From an uncultured Pseudomonadota bacterium (GTDB taxonomy: Bacteria; UBA10199; JACPAL01; GCA-016699445): a stretch of 64,000 nucleotides of DNA. The notes below the pieces were generated by a model, which saw nothing but the letters and a program-made list of their open reading frames with translations, did no database searches and was not told where the DNA came from. This document shows, one piece after another, positions 42,863-64,000 of the stretch. The position numbers and the translations under genes are program-made. The DNA lies in assembly GCA_964555055.1 (NCBI GenBank), contig CAZKQW010000001.1:329196-393195 (forward strand), in the 5' to 3' direction. Positions within the stretch are counted from its first letter, which is position 1, and every line of letters begins with the position of its first letter.

Positions 42863-43471
42863 TTATCTTTTGCCCGGTTTTTGCGGCGGCCTTTGGGCTT
42901 GGGTGGGACGAGAAGACGCGGCCTGTTGCTGCATACGCTTACGCAAATCCATCGTCCGTTTCAGGGCAATGACGAGGGACCTCGCGCGATTCGCCCACAT
43001 GCTTTTTCCATCCGGATCGGCTAAGATCGCCAACCTAAAATCCTCCGCCGCTTTCTTGAAATTCTTATGGCGCAGGTAAATTTCCCCTCGGTTCACGTAC
43101 GGACAAAGATCCTTAGGATTGACCCGAATGGCGCGCGTGTAAGCGACAACGGCCTCTACATTCTTGCCCAACTTTTGGTAAACCCCTCCCAAAGCCATGT
43201 GGTAATAAGCATTGACGCTATCCAATTGGGATAAAGCCTTGAAAATATCATGGGCCTCTTCGTAACGCCCGTACTTGTATTTCACGTAGCCCACCTCCGC
43301 GAGCCGGGCGAAACGCTTCTTCGGCAAACCCATCAAATCGGCGGCGGAAATCTTATGGCTGACGAACTTATGGAAAAGTTCGGTTAAATAACGACGGCGC
43401 TCGGGGTTGGGGTCGAGGACTTTTCCCTTTTCCTCGTCGGCGAACGGATGGCGCGTCTCTTCTCGTGGCAT
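42863..43471 (-). CDS. TPR protein, class II T3SS chaperone-like (SycD/LcrH family)
   Basis: 'LAEVGYVKYKYGRYEEAHDIFKALSQLDSVNAYYHMALGGVYQKLGK..AVVAYTRAI' follows the SycD/LcrH three-TPR pattern. Basic tail. Confidence 0.7.
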   Translation of the reverse strand: MPREETRHPFADEEKGKVLDPNPERRRYLTELFHKFVSHKISAADLMGLPKKRFARLAEVGYVKYKYGRYEEAHDIFKALSQLDSVNAYYHMALGGVYQKLGKNVEAVVAYTRAIRVNPKDLCPYVNRGEIYLRHKNFKKAAEDFRLAILADPDGKSMWANRARSLVIALKRTMDLRKRMQQQAASSRPTQAQRPPQKPGKR

Positions 43472-43516
43472 AAGAAGAGAATCTACCGACTCTAGGGCAG
43501 ATTTTCAAAGTTATTG

Positions 43517-44374
43517 TTATTGCTTCCAGTTTTGGATGATGGTGCTCGCCGTACGCGCAATGGTTTCATCGCTCTTTTTGGTGTCGGCTGTGATGCGTTC
43601 CATATCCGAAAGACTTTTTTGGAGCATCTGGGAAATCAAACTCATGTCGCTGCTGGCCTTATTGAGGTCGCTGCTGGCCCTTAAGATCTCGGCTTGGTTC
43701 GGAGGCGTGCTCGCGTTGGCGTTACGGGTCAGATCCCGATGGATGTTATCCAAATCGGCTGAATGCTGGGCGTAGACTTCGACAATACGGCCGATTTGTC
43801 TTTGCAAACGACCCGCATTTCTCAAGCCCATAATGACGTTCACGGAAGCCGGATTCCCGCGCGCTAGAGCCAAAGCCTCGTGCCAACGACGTCTCTCTTC
43901 CGCCGATTCACGGTATTGCTGGCTGAACATCTGGTCGAGGACGTTCGGGCCATCAACACCCCTGTTACCGCCATTCACATCGGGTAAAGTCGTCTCATTC
44001 CCCGAGAGTCGATCGATTTCGTTCAGCAGAGAATCCGGATCGAAATTTTGAGACTCCAAGGTGAGCTGCGCTTGAATAGACTGGGAAGCGGATTGGATCG
44101 CCGCCATTTCGTCCCGCGTCACGTTGCTGGTCGTGCTAATGAGCCCGTCATGGAACTCGGGAATATCAGCCTCCATTGAGCGGAAGTCCGGGCGAGCCAC
44201 GATTTCCGTGAGGCGCGCTGATTGACTCGCTAAAAAGGGAATGACGTTTTGGGGTTGTAGAGCGACGTTATCGGGTATTTTTAGCTGGTCTAAGTTGACG
44301 ACAATCTGTTCTTGCGAAGAGCCTACATACGGAAGTCTTCTCTGGATTTGATTGTCGTTAACCTGAATGCCCAT
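43517..44374 (-). CDS. hypothetical 285-aa T3SS substrate candidate (C-terminal module family)
   Basis: No TM helix. The C-terminal ~110 aa is similar to the C-termini of the 535-aa and 458-aa ORFs and ends '...TASTIIQNWKQ'. Sandwiched between two SycD-like chaperones. Confidence 0.6.
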   Translation of the reverse strand: MGIQVNDNQIQRRLPYVGSSQEQIVVNLDQLKIPDNVALQPQNVIPFLASQSARLTEIVARPDFRSMEADIPEFHDGLISTTSNVTRDEMAAIQSASQSIQAQLTLESQNFDPDSLLNEIDRLSGNETTLPDVNGGNRGVDGPNVLDQMFSQQYRESAEERRRWHEALALARGNPASVNVIMGLRNAGRLQRQIGRIVEVYAQHSADLDNIHRDLTRNANASTPPNQAEILRASSDLNKASSDMSLISQMLQKSLSDMERITADTKKSDETIARTASTIIQNWKQ

Positions 44375-44381
44375 CTAGCCC

Positions 44382-45017
44382 CTAGCCTTTTTTCGATATC
44401 TTTTGACGGTCTTGAGCGATCTTGATCTGTTCCTTCAGCATCCGCGCTCGATTCGCCCATCGATCTTCGTTTTTCGGATCTAAACCCATCGCCTGGTCCA
44501 GATCTTGATGGGCTAAGTCGAGGACACCGATTTTGACGTACACCTCACCCCGATTCGTCAGAGAAACGATATCCCGCGGATTTATTTCGATGGCTATAGA
44601 GTACTCCACTAAAGCTTCTGCCCATTTTTCCTGTCTTTGGAAAACGGCACCGAGCATCTGATGGTAATAGTAATTCTCTGTGTCCAATACCGTCAGTCCA
44701 CGAAAAATCTTTTCGGCCGCCTCATACTGGCCAATCTTAAACTTCTCATACCCAGACTCAGCGATTTGATGGAGTTTTTCAGGAGTGTATTGGCTCATGT
44801 CCGCCCATGACAAATCCCCCTCCAGGAGTTTTTCGGCTTCTTTCTTGGCGGTTTCCAATTTTTCCTTCGGAACCCCCTTTAAGGCTTCCTCAAGCTGCTT
44901 CGTGACGAGTTCCATGATATGATCCTTTTCCCCTTGGGGATCGGGTTGCGCCGGCTGGATCGGCTTGATGCCAACGCGTGACGGTTTATTCTCTGTCTGT
45001 TCGGCCACGGACACCAC
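44382..45017 (-). CDS. TPR protein, class II T3SS chaperone-like (SycD/LcrH family)
   Basis: GGGAGGA RBS before the GTG at 45017. 'LHQIAESGYEKFKIGQYEAAEKIFRGLTVLDTENYYYHQMLGAVFQRQEKWAEALVEYS' aligns to the SycD core. Confidence 0.72.
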   Translation of the reverse strand: MVSVAEQTENKPSRVGIKPIQPAQPDPQGEKDHIMELVTKQLEEALKGVPKEKLETAKKEAEKLLEGDLSWADMSQYTPEKLHQIAESGYEKFKIGQYEAAEKIFRGLTVLDTENYYYHQMLGAVFQRQEKWAEALVEYSIAIEINPRDIVSLTNRGEVYVKIGVLDLAHQDLDQAMGLDPKNEDRWANRARMLKEQIKIAQDRQKISKKG

Positions 45018-45112
45018 CTTTTTCCTCCCAGTCTAACACAGTCCTTTAAAAACGAGCGAGCATTATCCGATCAGATGAGGGCTTAAGGGGAGAACGGTAT
45101 TTCCCCCTAAAT

Positions 45113-62876: not shown

Positions 62877-62935
62877 GGAACGCTCCTCTTTATCTTCAAT
62901 CCCTAAAGACCGAACGGCCTTTAAGGCGACTCAAT

Positions 62936-62961
62936 GGAGAGTTTATACCACAAAACTCTCC
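62936..62961 (-). other. perfect 9-bp stem / 8-nt loop hairpin in the gap upstream of the needle-like gene
   Basis: ggagagttt (62936-62944) pairs with aaactctcc (62953-62961). It lies 60-85 nt upstream of the needle-like ATG. Confidence 0.5.
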
Positions 62962-63025
62962 AACTAAAGAATTATCGTCCCCACCCACTTATCCAGTTGC
63001 TCCCATGGAGCCAAAACCCTCTTTT

Positions 63026-63337
63026 TTATTTAGGTCGGTGATGTCTAGACTCACCACATTTCTCTTTCACATCAAAATCGACCTTCATGCGAAAAAGCTC
63101 CCGAAATAAGTCCATGGTACGCTCGACCGCTTTCATCGCTTTGCGCGTTTCTTTTTTCTTATTCATACCAGAAGCCGTGCGAGAAAGTTTTTCTAGCGAC
63201 TCGCGTAATTCTCCAAAATGTGCCTTAAAATCCTCTGGATTTTTCTTTAAAACCTTCTCGATCTCGGGAAATTGCAGAAAAAAATTTTCCTGAGCTTCGG
63301 ATACTCCCGGAGATGCCGCACGCATATCTTTTTTCAT
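63026..63337 (-). CDS. small helical protein, YscE/PscE-like co-chaperone candidate
   Basis: 103 aa, Lys/Glu-rich, predicted helical. Directly upstream of the needle-like gene (the yscE position). Positional evidence only. Confidence 0.35.
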   Translation of the reverse strand: MKKDMRAASPGVSEAQENFFLQFPEIEKVLKKNPEDFKAHFGELRESLEKLSRTASGMNKKKETRKAMKAVERTMDLFRELFRMKVDFDVKEKCGESRHHRPK

Positions 63338-63344
63338 AACACCT

Positions 63345-64000
63345 CTAATTCGGGGTTAATTTGATCACTACGGGCTTGAACTCGCTGACACCAAGGCCGA
63401 TCTTGATTTCGCTGGGTTGATAACCATCTCGGCGAGCCTGAATCTTGAAATCACCTACGCCTAAATCATGCAATATCAAAGGCGTCGTCTGCTGAATCTC
63501 AAGGCTATTGATATAAATACGAGCCCCTGGAGGTTCCGTGGTGATATACATCACGGAGTTAAGCGGTGAAAGACGTTGGAATAGAGCTCCTGCGTCTGAT
63601 CTCACCTTAGGATCTTCCGAGGTAGTCAAAATCTCAACGACGCCTTGTAGGGATCGATTCTTGTCACCTTCCTCGAAGGAAACGCTCGCCAGACCAAGCT
63701 TTCCGTGAAACTTGAAATCTTCGTGAAGCATGGCCTTATTGAAGTAATCCCGAGCCTCCTTATAAGTCTTTTGTCTCAGGTAACAAATGCCGACGAGATA
63801 GGAGATTTGGGCCGTTTCTCGTGGGCCGGGATTCTTGGCAAATGCTTCGACTAAAACAGGCAAGGCCTCCCCGAACCTCTCTTCCTTAATCAGGACGTCC
63901 GCTTTATTGATCAACTCTCCCGCTTCAGACGTCTTCATCACAATGTCGGCTAAATAAGGAACATTCGTCGCCACGCGCAAAGGTTGGACGTTATCGAAGT
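63345..64000 (-). CDS. TPR + PEGA domain protein, probably 5'-truncated by window edge
   Basis: The frame stays open to base 64000. TPR repeats ('EERFGEALPVLVEAFAKNP', 'YKEARDYFNKAM') precede a C-terminal PEGA domain 'ITTEPPGARIYINSLEIQQTTPLILHDLGVGDFKIQARRDGYQ'. Confidence 0.6.
   Translation of the reverse strand, partial: FDNVQPLRVATNVPYLADIVMKTSEAGELINKADVLIKEERFGEALPVLVEAFAKNPGPRETAQISYLVGICYLRQKTYKEARDYFNKAMLHEDFKFHGKLGLASVSFEEGDKNRSLQGVVEILTTSEDPKVRSDAGALFQRLSPLNSVMYITTEPPGARIYINSLEIQQTTPLILHDLGVGDFKIQARRDGYQPSEIKIGLGVSEFKPVVIKLTPN

Follow-up and report, generated by a model that had tools for sequence, protein, structure and literature searches.

The last 21 kb of the DNA examined here, a 64,000-nucleotide stretch of contig CAZKQW010000001.1 from an uncultured bacterium (hereafter the window), hold a T3SS (type III secretion system) locus of 28 closely spaced open reading frames (ORFs) on the minus strand at positions 42863-64000. 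The original prediction, made from the sequence alone, had described this locus as a mixture of injectisome-type and flagellum-type components, and every ORF it named is present on the minus strand where it was placed. An identical contig in another assembly (L001) carries the locus 8.9 kb beyond the window end, where a SctD-like gene is followed by a divergent three-gene unit (for a protein of 195 aa, a TPR protein, and one with two FHA domains), a pair of small genes, sctV, which sits 17 kb upstream of sctN, and then argJ. Taken together, these genes probably encode a deep-branching non-flagellar T3SS without a secretin, in which several flagellar features have been kept.

The genes for the export apparatus and its cytoplasmic platform are listed below with their profile hidden Markov model (HMM) scores, set against the family's gathering threshold (GA) or model cutoff where one applies.

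50476..51306, minus strand: SctT/FliR export-gate subunit (PF01311, 159 bits; FliR and SctT models tie at 133.5 vs 131.9 bits)
51387..51653, minus strand: SctS/FliQ export-gate subunit (PF01313, 99 bits; FliQ 91.5 and SctS 86.5 bits, both over cutoff)
51669..52448, minus strand: SctR export-gate subunit (PF00813, 223 bits; YscR models 249 and 230 bits vs FliP 194 bits)
52435..52734, minus strand: FliO-like single-pass protein (PF04347, 45 bits, GA 22; TIGR03500, 58 bits, cutoff 55.25)
52736..53242, minus strand: FliN-like SpoA protein, SctQ-C equivalent (PF01052, 76 bits; FliN model 77.7 vs SctQ 63 bits)
53276..54184, minus strand: FliM-like protein, SctQ-N equivalent (PF02154, 57 bits, GA 27)
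54190..55098, minus strand: SctP/FliK-type ruler whose C-terminal domain is T3S4 (Flg_hook) (PF02120, 30.1 bits, GA 29.8)
55091..55624, minus strand: SctO/FliJ stalk protein (PF16789 YscO-like, 82 bits; FliJ 24 bits, under GA)
55635..56954, minus strand: SctN/FliI ATPase (PF00006, 300 bits; T3SS_ATPase_C, 99 bits)
56954..57580, minus strand: SctL/FliH stator (PF02108, 70 bits; PF06635, 31.5 bits; hhalign YscL 98.7%, FliH 96.7%)
57615..58502, minus strand: FliG-like protein at the SctK position (PF01706 FliG_C, 30.4 bits, GA 23.3)

Flagellar and non-flagellar models score alike for SctN, SctS, and SctT; SctN, for instance, passes both FliI_clade2 (647 bits) and the SctN model (633 bits), and the chlamydial SctN model reaches 310 bits. 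SctV, on the other hand, passes the SctV equivalog cutoff (807 bits against 692) and fails that of FlhA (699 bits against 772). Comparison of SctO with single FliJ and YscO sequences by hhalign gave no match. The SctR protein carries an N-terminal signal peptide of the FliP type, as had been claimed for it, and comparison with FliP and with seven classical SctR proteins shows the extension to be common to the former and missing from all of the latter. In flagella, FliO is an assembly chaperone of FliP, and the FliO-like protein of this locus has a transmembrane (TM) helix at residues 5-38 and is encoded in all of the related loci described below. The relationship between FliK and SctP through the T3S4 domain is textbook knowledge; here the ruler is nearer to FliK (hhalign P=9.5e-4) than to YscP (0.27), and its homologues in two related loci, L006 and L023, share the Flg_hook match.

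The platform proteins carry the clearest flagellar signatures. Beyond its own FliG_C match, the FliG-like protein has relatives in other loci that also match FliG_M, and hhalign prefers FliG (P=2.5e-4) to YscK (0.056), aligning an invariant ESPR with the EHPQ motif of FliG. An AlphaFold2 model of the protein (pLDDT 77) retrieved only FliG structures among its top ten Foldseek matches and no SctK structure. The structural comparison suggested by the original prediction thus gives weak support in the same direction, every one of those matches having an E value of at least 0.08 and none being significant. The protein is shorter than flagellar FliG. At residues ~176-183 the hhalign alignment places basic or variable positions, with R182 invariant, opposite the acidic pair of the FliG torque helix, which we take to be D288/D289 in E. 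coli, and these non-acidic positions fit the absence of a stator. The family is a rare one, with ~20 members in 5.8 billion proteins and 3 species among 185,579 GTDB representatives, and a profile search, whose reach is limited by its word-index filter, returned only the same 19 proteins and no Myxococcus protein or true FliG.

The FliM-like protein aligns with E. coli FliM over 246 columns (hhalign, 97.4% probability), and its DKLMGGSGE falls on the DNLFGGDGR of FliM, preserving a GGXG motif that is kept in all six loci examined. To place it relative to SctQ, we used a GC-rich (71.6%) short locus, L025, with the order p136, SctI, SctJ, K-position gene, SctL, SctN, SctQ, FliO, SctR, S, T, as a presumptive Myxo-like stand-in, chosen for GC and gene content matching the published Myxococcales short locus and not by taxonomy. 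The FliM-like protein matches the N-terminal 230 residues of L025 SctQ (78%, E=1.7e-5), whereas L025 SctQ itself matches YscQ (96%) and not FliM. As the FliM-like protein thus matches both FliM and L025 SctQ while the latter matches only YscQ of the two, its sequence stands between those of FliM and SctQ. The adjacent FliN-like SpoA protein matches FliN (98.4%) and YscQ (95.9%) by hhalign. Separate FliM-like and FliN-like proteins, like the FliO-like ORF, the FliG_C-like ORF, and the FliK-like C-terminus of the ruler, were all part of the original prediction, and the profile searches bear them out: the FliO, FliG_C, FliM, FliN/SpoA, FliH, and Flg_hook likenesses all reach curated significance, the last of these barely. 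Since curated HMM thresholds are passed, these flagellar resemblances are not artefacts.

The inner ring, the candidate axial proteins, and their candidate chaperones are encoded as follows.

58509..59045, minus strand: SctI-like (inner rod) protein (PF17001, 17 bits, E=0.0065, and TIGR02497, 18 bits, E=0.002; both are sub-threshold and fall on one and the same C-terminal segment)
60830..61891, minus strand: SctJ inner-membrane ring lipoprotein (PF01514 YscJ_FliF, 75.7 bits; no YscJ_FliF_C)
61891..62301, minus strand: TPR chaperone at the YscG/CdsG position (TPR Pfam matches; NF052304 CdsG, 36 bits, E=5e-9)
62304..62876, minus strand: needle-like protein of 190 aa with a SctF-like C-terminal helix and a long Gly/Ser/Ala-rich middle
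63026..63337, minus strand: 103-aa protein at the YscE position, conserved in L002, L003, and L006
63345..64000, minus strand: 3' part of the SctD-like gene, which leaves the window (PEGA and TPR in the window part; full gene at L001 7373-9532)
42863..43471, minus strand: LcrH/SycD-like TPR chaperone A (TIGR02552 the top match, 79.6 bits, cutoff 104.8; TPR Pfam matches; tblastn with LcrH, 7e-9)
44382..45017, minus strand: LcrH/SycD-like TPR chaperone B (TIGR02552, 81.1 bits, cutoff 104.8; homologue in L005)
59997..60350, minus strand: 117-aa ORF with no family match (L006 and L023 have a small ORF in the same place without detectable similarity)
60352..60747, minus strand: p131, a conserved 131-aa Gly-rich protein with homologues in L002, L003, L004, and L006 and no family match

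The ring protein is clearly of the injectisome type, as predicted. The SctJ model is its best match (120 bits) and no FliF model matches, hhalign gives YscJ at 98.9% over 233 columns vs FliF at 93.2%, and the protein has a conserved lipoprotein Cys behind its signal sequence, one TM helix at its C-terminus, and a cytoplasmic tail of 57 aa. Its SctD-like partner (719 aa) begins with an FHA/Yop-YscD_cpl domain, crosses the membrane once (residues 205-227), and ends in a large periplasmic TPR/PEGA part; it scores 33 bits with the TIGR02500 SctD model, under the cutoff of 86.

The axial candidates are less sharply defined. For the YscI-like C-terminus of the original prediction, the HMM matches stay below threshold while the protein matches the SctI-position gene of L025 at 97% by hhalign. 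The needle-like C-terminus, predicted to lie in a yscE-F-G-like arrangement, has no HMM match in Pfam or NCBIfam, and a PDB sequence search with a profile of this region gave only chance bZIP matches; on the positive side, its conserved pattern (...SN-LK-K-DTE----RN-R) aligns with a three-sequence YscF/MxiH/EscF profile in register to the last residue (hhalign P=4.3e-4), and a CdsG-like TPR gene, 51-90% identical among related loci, follows it. Homology of this C-terminus to SctF is best called suggestive. Both the SctI-like and the needle-like gene are conserved among related loci. No similarity to YscE was detected for the 103-aa protein by hhalign, and hhalign of p131 against small Ysc proteins found no match. 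The two predicted SycD/LcrH-like chaperones are recognisable as such, at about 80 bits each, though below the model cutoff. In L025 (771-1534), the 136-aa p136 gene, which ends in ...AAINNLR, stands immediately upstream of SctI and weakly matches the needle-like family (C-terminus to C-terminus, P=3.7e-4), so the "needle-less" Myxo-type systems may hold an unrecognised axial subunit.

Several genes that would complete either a flagellum or a classical injectisome were sought across the window, the L001 extension, and the related loci. For secretin, neither the Pfam gene tables nor tblastn with YscC, MxiD, EscC, HrcC, and a Bradyrhizobium plasmid secretin gave a match, and for sctU there was no Bac_export_2 match and no tblastn match with YscU, Spa40, EscU, HrcU, or RhcU. 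No gatekeeper SctW, recognisable tip, or hydrophobic translocator was found at the locus by tblastn with reference proteins. Likewise, Pfam tables and tblastn revealed no FliF, FliE, FlgB/C rod, hook, flagellin, or MotAB genes in the window, the L001 extension, or the eight syntenic loci introduced below. The original prediction had reported no rod, hook, MotAB, or secretin gene in the window, which holds also for the L001 extension, and had reasoned that FliF, rod, and hook genes in the flank would make this an ordinary flagellar regulon; the flank instead holds sctV and the SctD-like gene.

That explanation, in which the locus belongs to an ordinary flagellar regulon with its other genes elsewhere in the genome, is largely refuted, and we give it hardly any credence. 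Automatic pipelines do give the ATPase the name "FliI" and call the K-position gene "FliG-like," and the flagellum-type HMM matches fit it. However, besides the missing FliF, FliE, FlgB/C, hook, flagellin, and Mot genes, the locus has a SctJ-type ring, LcrH-like and CdsG-like chaperones, and a SctD-like gene, and its clade stands apart from the flagellar references with 97-100% support in the trees discussed below. Real flagellar loci (L019 and L020) carry FliF, rod, hook, and Mot genes beside fliI.

The locus is not a chance assembly, because its gene order recurs in eight related loci from divergent metagenome-assembled genomes (MAGs), namely the window and L002-L006, L023, and L024. The shared order runs D-like, small protein, needle-like, TPR, sctJ, small proteins, sigma factor, sctI-like, FliG-like, and sctL, followed by N, O, P, FliM-like, FliN-like, fliO, sctR, S, and T. 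SctN is 75-97% identical across these syntenic loci while the substrates vary, and an ATPase 75-86% identical to SctN occurs in >120 protein clusters from related MAGs, of which the named ones are "Deltaproteobacteria bacterium" or MAGs of unclassified bacteria, GWA2_45_12 and RIFCSP bins among them. In L002 (CP064976.1, a closed long-read MAG), sctN, sctJ, and the FliG-like and needle-like genes show apparent frameshifts or truncations within 5638-12866; because the same genes are intact in the window, they probably reflect indel errors in the assembly and not decay. Three of the related loci have toxin-antitoxin pairs directly after sctT or within the locus (L006 16208-18116; L023 16270-16937; L024 2427-3043 and 19862-20652), the types being AbiEii with ParE/RHH, PIN/PhdYeFM, HigB/HTH, and HepT/MNT; the window has none there.

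To place this clade among known systems, we built unrooted neighbour-joining (NJ) trees from simple distances, using SctN+R+S+T (~980 columns), with annotated records of Ysc, Mxi-Spa, LEE, Hrp1, Hrp2, Rhc, and the Bradyrhizobium plasmid system as classical references and E. coli, Acetoanaerobium, and one metagenomic flagellar locus as flagellar references. The flagella, the seven classical injectisomes, and the window clade form three groups, each with 100% support. The classical families are monophyletic without the window clade in the four-protein tree (100%), with SctN alone (97%), and after Dayhoff recoding (98%), and SctV alone splits the classical systems from the window plus flagella (98%). 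The core proteins thus do not nest inside a classical injectisome family; such nesting is what the original prediction had named as counting against it. L025, for its part, joins the classical families and not the window clade (99% by Kimura NJ, 82-94% with slow sites, 61% after Dayhoff recoding). In these trees the window clade lies outside every family tested and tends to be nearest to the flagella. A first, large NJ tree of SctN was rejected as a guide to named families: the neighbours P0149, P0213, and P0282 proved to be isolated fliH-fliI pairs or scattered flagellar genes. The contig of P0261 is 1.6 kb long and gives no gene context.

Nearness to flagella raises the alternative of a second, independent derivation from a flagellar cluster through loss of its hook, rod, and motor genes, rather than descent from the injectisome ancestor. 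Outside its own clade, SctN is 55-58% identical to genuine flagellar FliI vs 54% to YscN. The loci of those nearest relatives carry FliF, FliG, rod, hook, and Mot genes; the nearest representatives bearing an organism name are flagellar FliI of Bacillota or Thermomicrobium, and two others are labelled FliI/YscN or T3SS-ATPase generically. The gene order, which the original prediction had found colinear with both the flagellar and the ysc order, is indeed that of the flagellar operon L020 less flgD/E, motAB, and fliL; FliG, FliM, FliN, FliO, FliK, FliA, and the FliP signal peptide are all kept; and an unrooted tree alone cannot place the clade on either side of the root. We nevertheless consider this derivation very improbable in view of the derived injectisome characters: a SctJ lipoprotein in place of FliF, an FHA-type SctD-like partner, a SctI-like protein homologous to that of L025, a SctV over the SctV cutoff and under the FlhA cutoff, SctR and SctL nearer to the Ysc models, a YscO-like protein, and LcrH-like and CdsG-like chaperones. 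By sequence, the same set of proteins (SctJ, the FHA-type partner, the Ysc-nearer SctV, SctR, and SctL, and the YscO-, LcrH-, and CdsG-like proteins) favours the injectisome lineage.

The locus also appears to bring its own regulators, for which the following genes and candidate promoters were found.

38826..41447, plus strand: Ser/Thr protein kinase with five PEGA domains, a candidate sensor (Pkinase, 132 bits; PEGA, 212 bits)
41455..42858, plus strand: FHA-domain sigma54 enhancer-binding protein with FHA, AAA+, and HTH_8 (Sigma54_activat, 240 bits; FHA, 70 bits)
59053..59889, minus strand: FliA/WhiG-like sigma factor (Sigma70_r2 and r4; best NCBIfam model TIGR02479, 140.7 bits, cutoff 189.6)
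48179..48193, minus strand: sigma54-type promoter TGGCCCTCGTTTTGC, 79 nt upstream of p458
50357..50371, minus strand: sigma54-type promoter TGGCCTTCTTTTTGC, 35 nt upstream of p372, with an equivalent before the first post-sctT gene in L002 and L005
59917..59931, minus strand: sigma54-type promoter TGGCATGTTGACTGC, lying 28 nt before the sigma gene
60771..60797, minus strand: FliA-type promoter CAACTGCTAAGCCGGGCCGAGACGATA, before p131
62973..62999, minus strand: FliA-type promoter CAACTGGATAAGTGGGTGGGGACGATA, upstream of the needle-like gene

The FliA-family sigma factor of the original prediction has FliA/WhiG as its best model while remaining under that model's cutoff, and it is 62-95% identical among related loci. 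The pattern TGGC-N7-TTGC has three matches in 64 kb, two of which fall in the locus's two largest intergenic gaps on the correct strand, and in the window, L002, L003, L004, L005, L006, and L023 the FliA-like sigma gene is preceded, at a distance of 28-50 nt, by TTGGCAY-N5-STGCA. The FliA-type promoters share the consensus CAACT-N17-CGATAA. In its looser form, CAACT-N15-19-CGATA, this has 4 matches in the window vs 0.36 expected, a number reached in none of 100 shuffles. The motif precedes both the needle-like and the p131-like genes in the window, L002, L005, L023, and L024, and the needle-like gene only in L003; L004 and L006 have the -10 part alone upstream of the needle-like gene. In L006 and L023, large unknown genes are likewise preceded by the motif. 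Overall, the promoter motifs keep their positions in up to eight lineages. A third motif of this type in the window (44297-44269, minus strand) lies inside the annotated 5' end of the p285 ORF, whose true start may be an ATG ~66 codons downstream, giving the gene its own promoter.

Given these promoter motifs and the adjoining pair of kinase and FHA-sigma54 activator, which is adjacent to the related locus L005 as well, we propose a flagellum-style cascade. The PEGA kinase would signal to the FHA-sigma54 activator, which would fire the sigma54 promoters of the operon running from the sigma gene and sctI to sctT and of the "ELWG" substrate genes described next; the FliA-like sigma factor of the locus would then fire the CAACT-N17-CGATAA promoters of the needle-like operon, p131, and further substrates. 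Flagellar hierarchies similarly have sigma54 control upstream of a FliA-like sigma factor and a CGATAA -10 element.

The genes after sctT are not conserved among related loci, a variability expected for cargo, and in the window they comprise, besides the two LcrH-like chaperones, five candidate substrates.

43517..44374, minus strand: p285, a 285-aa candidate secreted protein between the LcrH-like chaperones (no Pfam match; C-terminus ...TIIQNWKQ; not conserved elsewhere)
45113..46720, minus strand: p535, a 535-aa candidate substrate rich in coiled coil (no Pfam match)
46723..48099, minus strand: p458, a 458-aa candidate substrate with an "LWG" N-terminus (NLWG) and a Gly/Ala-rich middle
48346..49191, minus strand: p281, a 281-aa candidate substrate with the N-terminus MELWG
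49204..50322, minus strand: p372, a 372-aa Pro-rich candidate substrate with the N-terminus MMELWG

Two of these, p458 and p535, share a C-terminal domain of 130 aa (blastp E=1.3e-13). In L002, the first gene after sctT (~18894) starts with MEMWG and occupies the same place behind the same type of promoter as p372. The recurring M(M)ELWG, NLWG, or MEMWG start has the look of a common N-terminal tag and may be a signal for secretion or for a chaperone.

Scans of the window for tRNAs and Rfam families found nothing. At a distance of 9 kb from the T3SS locus is a three-gene operon for PrkA kinase, DUF444 (YeaH-like), and SpoVR, the conserved module of stress/starvation (29063-33725, minus strand). 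MlaD, ABC ATPase, and MlaE genes form a Mla-type outer-membrane lipid transport operon (33937-36369, minus strand). A response regulator fused to HD_5 (HD-GYP-type), a possible c-di-GMP phosphodiesterase, is encoded at 27348-28364 on the plus strand, and a 727-aa ORF without a Pfam match stands amid the TCA-cycle genes SdhA, Mdh, and SucC (10898-13081, minus strand).

We think it likely that the locus encodes a non-flagellar T3SS without a secretin that branches deeply in the injectisome lineage and has kept flagellar features which classical injectisomes lost or let diverge beyond recognition. The machine is probably a contact-dependent protein exporter. In such a machine the platform would be held by a flagellar type of contact, FliG(EHPQR) to FliM(GGXG), and would dock through FHA domains instead of a FliF tail. 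The SctI-like and needle-like proteins would be early exported axial substrates, chaperoned in the YscG/YscE manner by the TPR protein at the YscG/CdsG position and the 103-aa protein, and the "ELWG" proteins, p535, and p285 would be later substrates served by the two LcrH-like chaperones. As no secretin is linked, the outer-membrane channel would be encoded elsewhere, or there would be no dedicated one, as in Myxococcus T3SS*, with contact-dependent attack on other cells as the outcome.

Several points weigh against this reading. The essential core gene sctU is absent from the searched loci, leaving the completeness of the machine unproven. The FliG match is modest (30 bits, an hhalign probability of 43%, and Foldseek E values of at least 0.08), and the needle-like and SctI-like assignments fall under HMM thresholds. 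No TM helices are predicted in the candidate substrates, in contrast to the classical translocators that LcrH-type chaperones bind, and so these proteins are not classical translocators. The promoters are sequence motifs only. Finally, because the trees are distance trees, the clade evolves slowly, and L025 is GC-biased, an artefact of rate or composition could possibly have placed the clade too near the flagella, and the support for the position of L025 drops to 61% after Dayhoff recoding.

A bolder version holds that the clade is the earliest-diverging surviving injectisome branch, older than the Myxococcales systems, and retains the state which Abby & Rocha had predicted without observing it: secretin-less, with a SctF-like axial subunit, a FliG/FliM/FliN C-ring with the EHPQR-GGXG contact, FliO, and a sigma54-to-FliA-type hierarchy. 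This we regard as conceivable though doubtful; if true, it would provide direct sequence bridges for SctK=FliG and SctQ(N)=FliM.

The suggestion in the original prediction of an unusually flagellum-proximal or undescribed T3SS class stands insofar as the locus falls outside the seven classical families. The word "undescribed" rested on an incomplete comparison, because three of the "mixed" features were already known, as was a basal, secretin-less T3SS. FliO in a non-flagellar T3SS has been published for Myxococcota (PMC12248157), the SctK and FliG families share a Pfam clan (bioRxiv 10.1101/2025.03.14.643159), and the T3S4 link is likewise established; the basal, secretin-less "Myxo" T3SS has been described (Abby & Rocha 2012, PMC3459982), with LcrH-like chaperones and a use in predation (PMC3459982, PMC10433427), and Myxococcus T3SS*, which lacks secretin and needle, promotes prey lysis (PMC10433427, PMC10849154). 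A literature search for T3SS in "UBA10199" returned no papers, and the supplementary tables of the FliO preprint hold nothing for this lineage. In the literature searched we did not find the family itself, a FliG-like SctK paired at the sequence level with a GGXG-bearing FliM-like SctQ, a FliP-type signal peptide in a non-flagellar system, or a putative locus-encoded FliA-like sigma factor with conserved cognate promoters, defined here at the motif level, under sigma54 control.

Arguments on how the injectisome arose from the flagellum have drawn mainly on trees and on a single atypical group, the Myxococcales, and this family would add a second intermediate, richer in retained characters, with sequence-level links from FliM to the N-terminal half of SctQ and from FliG to the SctK position. 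It also suggests an order of events, in which FliO, the FliP signal peptide, and a FliA-type tier may outlast the replacement of FliF by SctJ and a SctD-like protein, and in which the same flagellar features possibly persisted before a secretin was recruited. Whether a FliG/FliM-type ring can serve as a static sorting platform, what takes the place of the secretin, and which cargo is injected are questions that the family raises. The hosts are uncultured bacteria that are common in groundwater and activated sludge and may be predatory or host-associated, and for annotation the pipeline labels "FliI" and "FliG-like" can make non-motile organisms appear flagellated.

Compared with the flagellum, the locus shares FliG_C/FliG_M, FliM with its GGXG motif, FliN, FliO, FliH, the T3S4 domain of FliK, and the FliP signal peptide; the C-ring trio and the pairing of FliO with a FliP-type signal peptide are thus all present by Pfam and NCBIfam cutoffs, the GGXG motif, and the signal peptide itself. 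It differs in having SctJ in place of FliF, in lacking FliE, rod, hook, filament, and MotAB genes, and in the nearness of its SctV, SctR, and SctL to injectisome models. With the classical injectisomes it has in common homologous SctJ, L, N, O, P, Q-C, R, S, T, and V, the yscE-F-G / I-J-K-L / N-O-P-Q-R-S-T order, and TPR class II and class III-like chaperones. Unlike them, it has K and Q components recognisable as FliG and FliM, a FliO, and a TPR/PEGA periplasmic part in its SctD-like protein, and it has no secretin, sctU, SctW, recognisable tip, or hydrophobic translocators at the locus. The chlamydial T3SS resembles it in being deep-branching, in having genes split over several loci, and in its CdsG-like needle chaperone (36 bits), and Chlamydiae have a sigma-28-family sigma factor in their genomes. 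However, the chlamydial system has a secretin while this locus has no linked one, and, in a comparison made by models and not in the tree, chlamydial models fit the window proteins poorly (310 bits for SctN vs 633-647 with the Ysc and FliI models, and 25.6 bits for SctQ).

The closest comparison is with the Myxo T3SS and T3SS*, judged here by the presumptive L025 and published descriptions and not by verified Myxococcus sequences. Both have no linked secretin, a basal position, SctD/J/I/Q/L/N/R/S/T, several LcrH-like chaperones, FliO (PMC12248157), FHA-domain proteins nearby, and a "deltaproteobacterial" host, so that by gene content the locus matches the published picture of a basal cluster that is non-flagellar, lacks a secretin, and has FliO and LcrH-like chaperones. 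These likenesses (PMC10433427, PMC12248157, PMC3459982), together with the backbone order shared with L025 and the homologous SctI at 97%, are what speak for a simpler account in which the locus is a plain member of the Myxococcales-type "needle-less" T3SS* family, extended only to new hosts. We hold that account to be unlikely. The Myxo systems are reported without FliG and SctF and with sctU in the cluster (PMC3459982, PMC10433427), whereas here FliG_C/FliG_M-positive and needle-like genes are present and conserved, and sctU is absent from the cluster. L025 groups with the classical injectisomes, an argument that is indirect given that it is a stand-in; its K-position gene is not similar to the FliG-like family, its SctQ gives no match to FliM, its SctR is without the FliP-type signal-peptide extension, and no sigma factor was called in it. 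The window locus is further set apart from T3SS* by a SctQ split into FliM-like (GGXG) and FliN-like proteins, a SctR that carries the FliP-type signal peptide, a FliA-like sigma factor that has candidate promoters of its own, a CdsG/YscG-like chaperone beside the needle-like gene, and hosts of ~50% GC that are not Cystobacterineae. As such, our best reading is that this deep injectisome-lineage branch, with the flagellar features it has kept, is closest in kind to the Myxococcus T3SS*.

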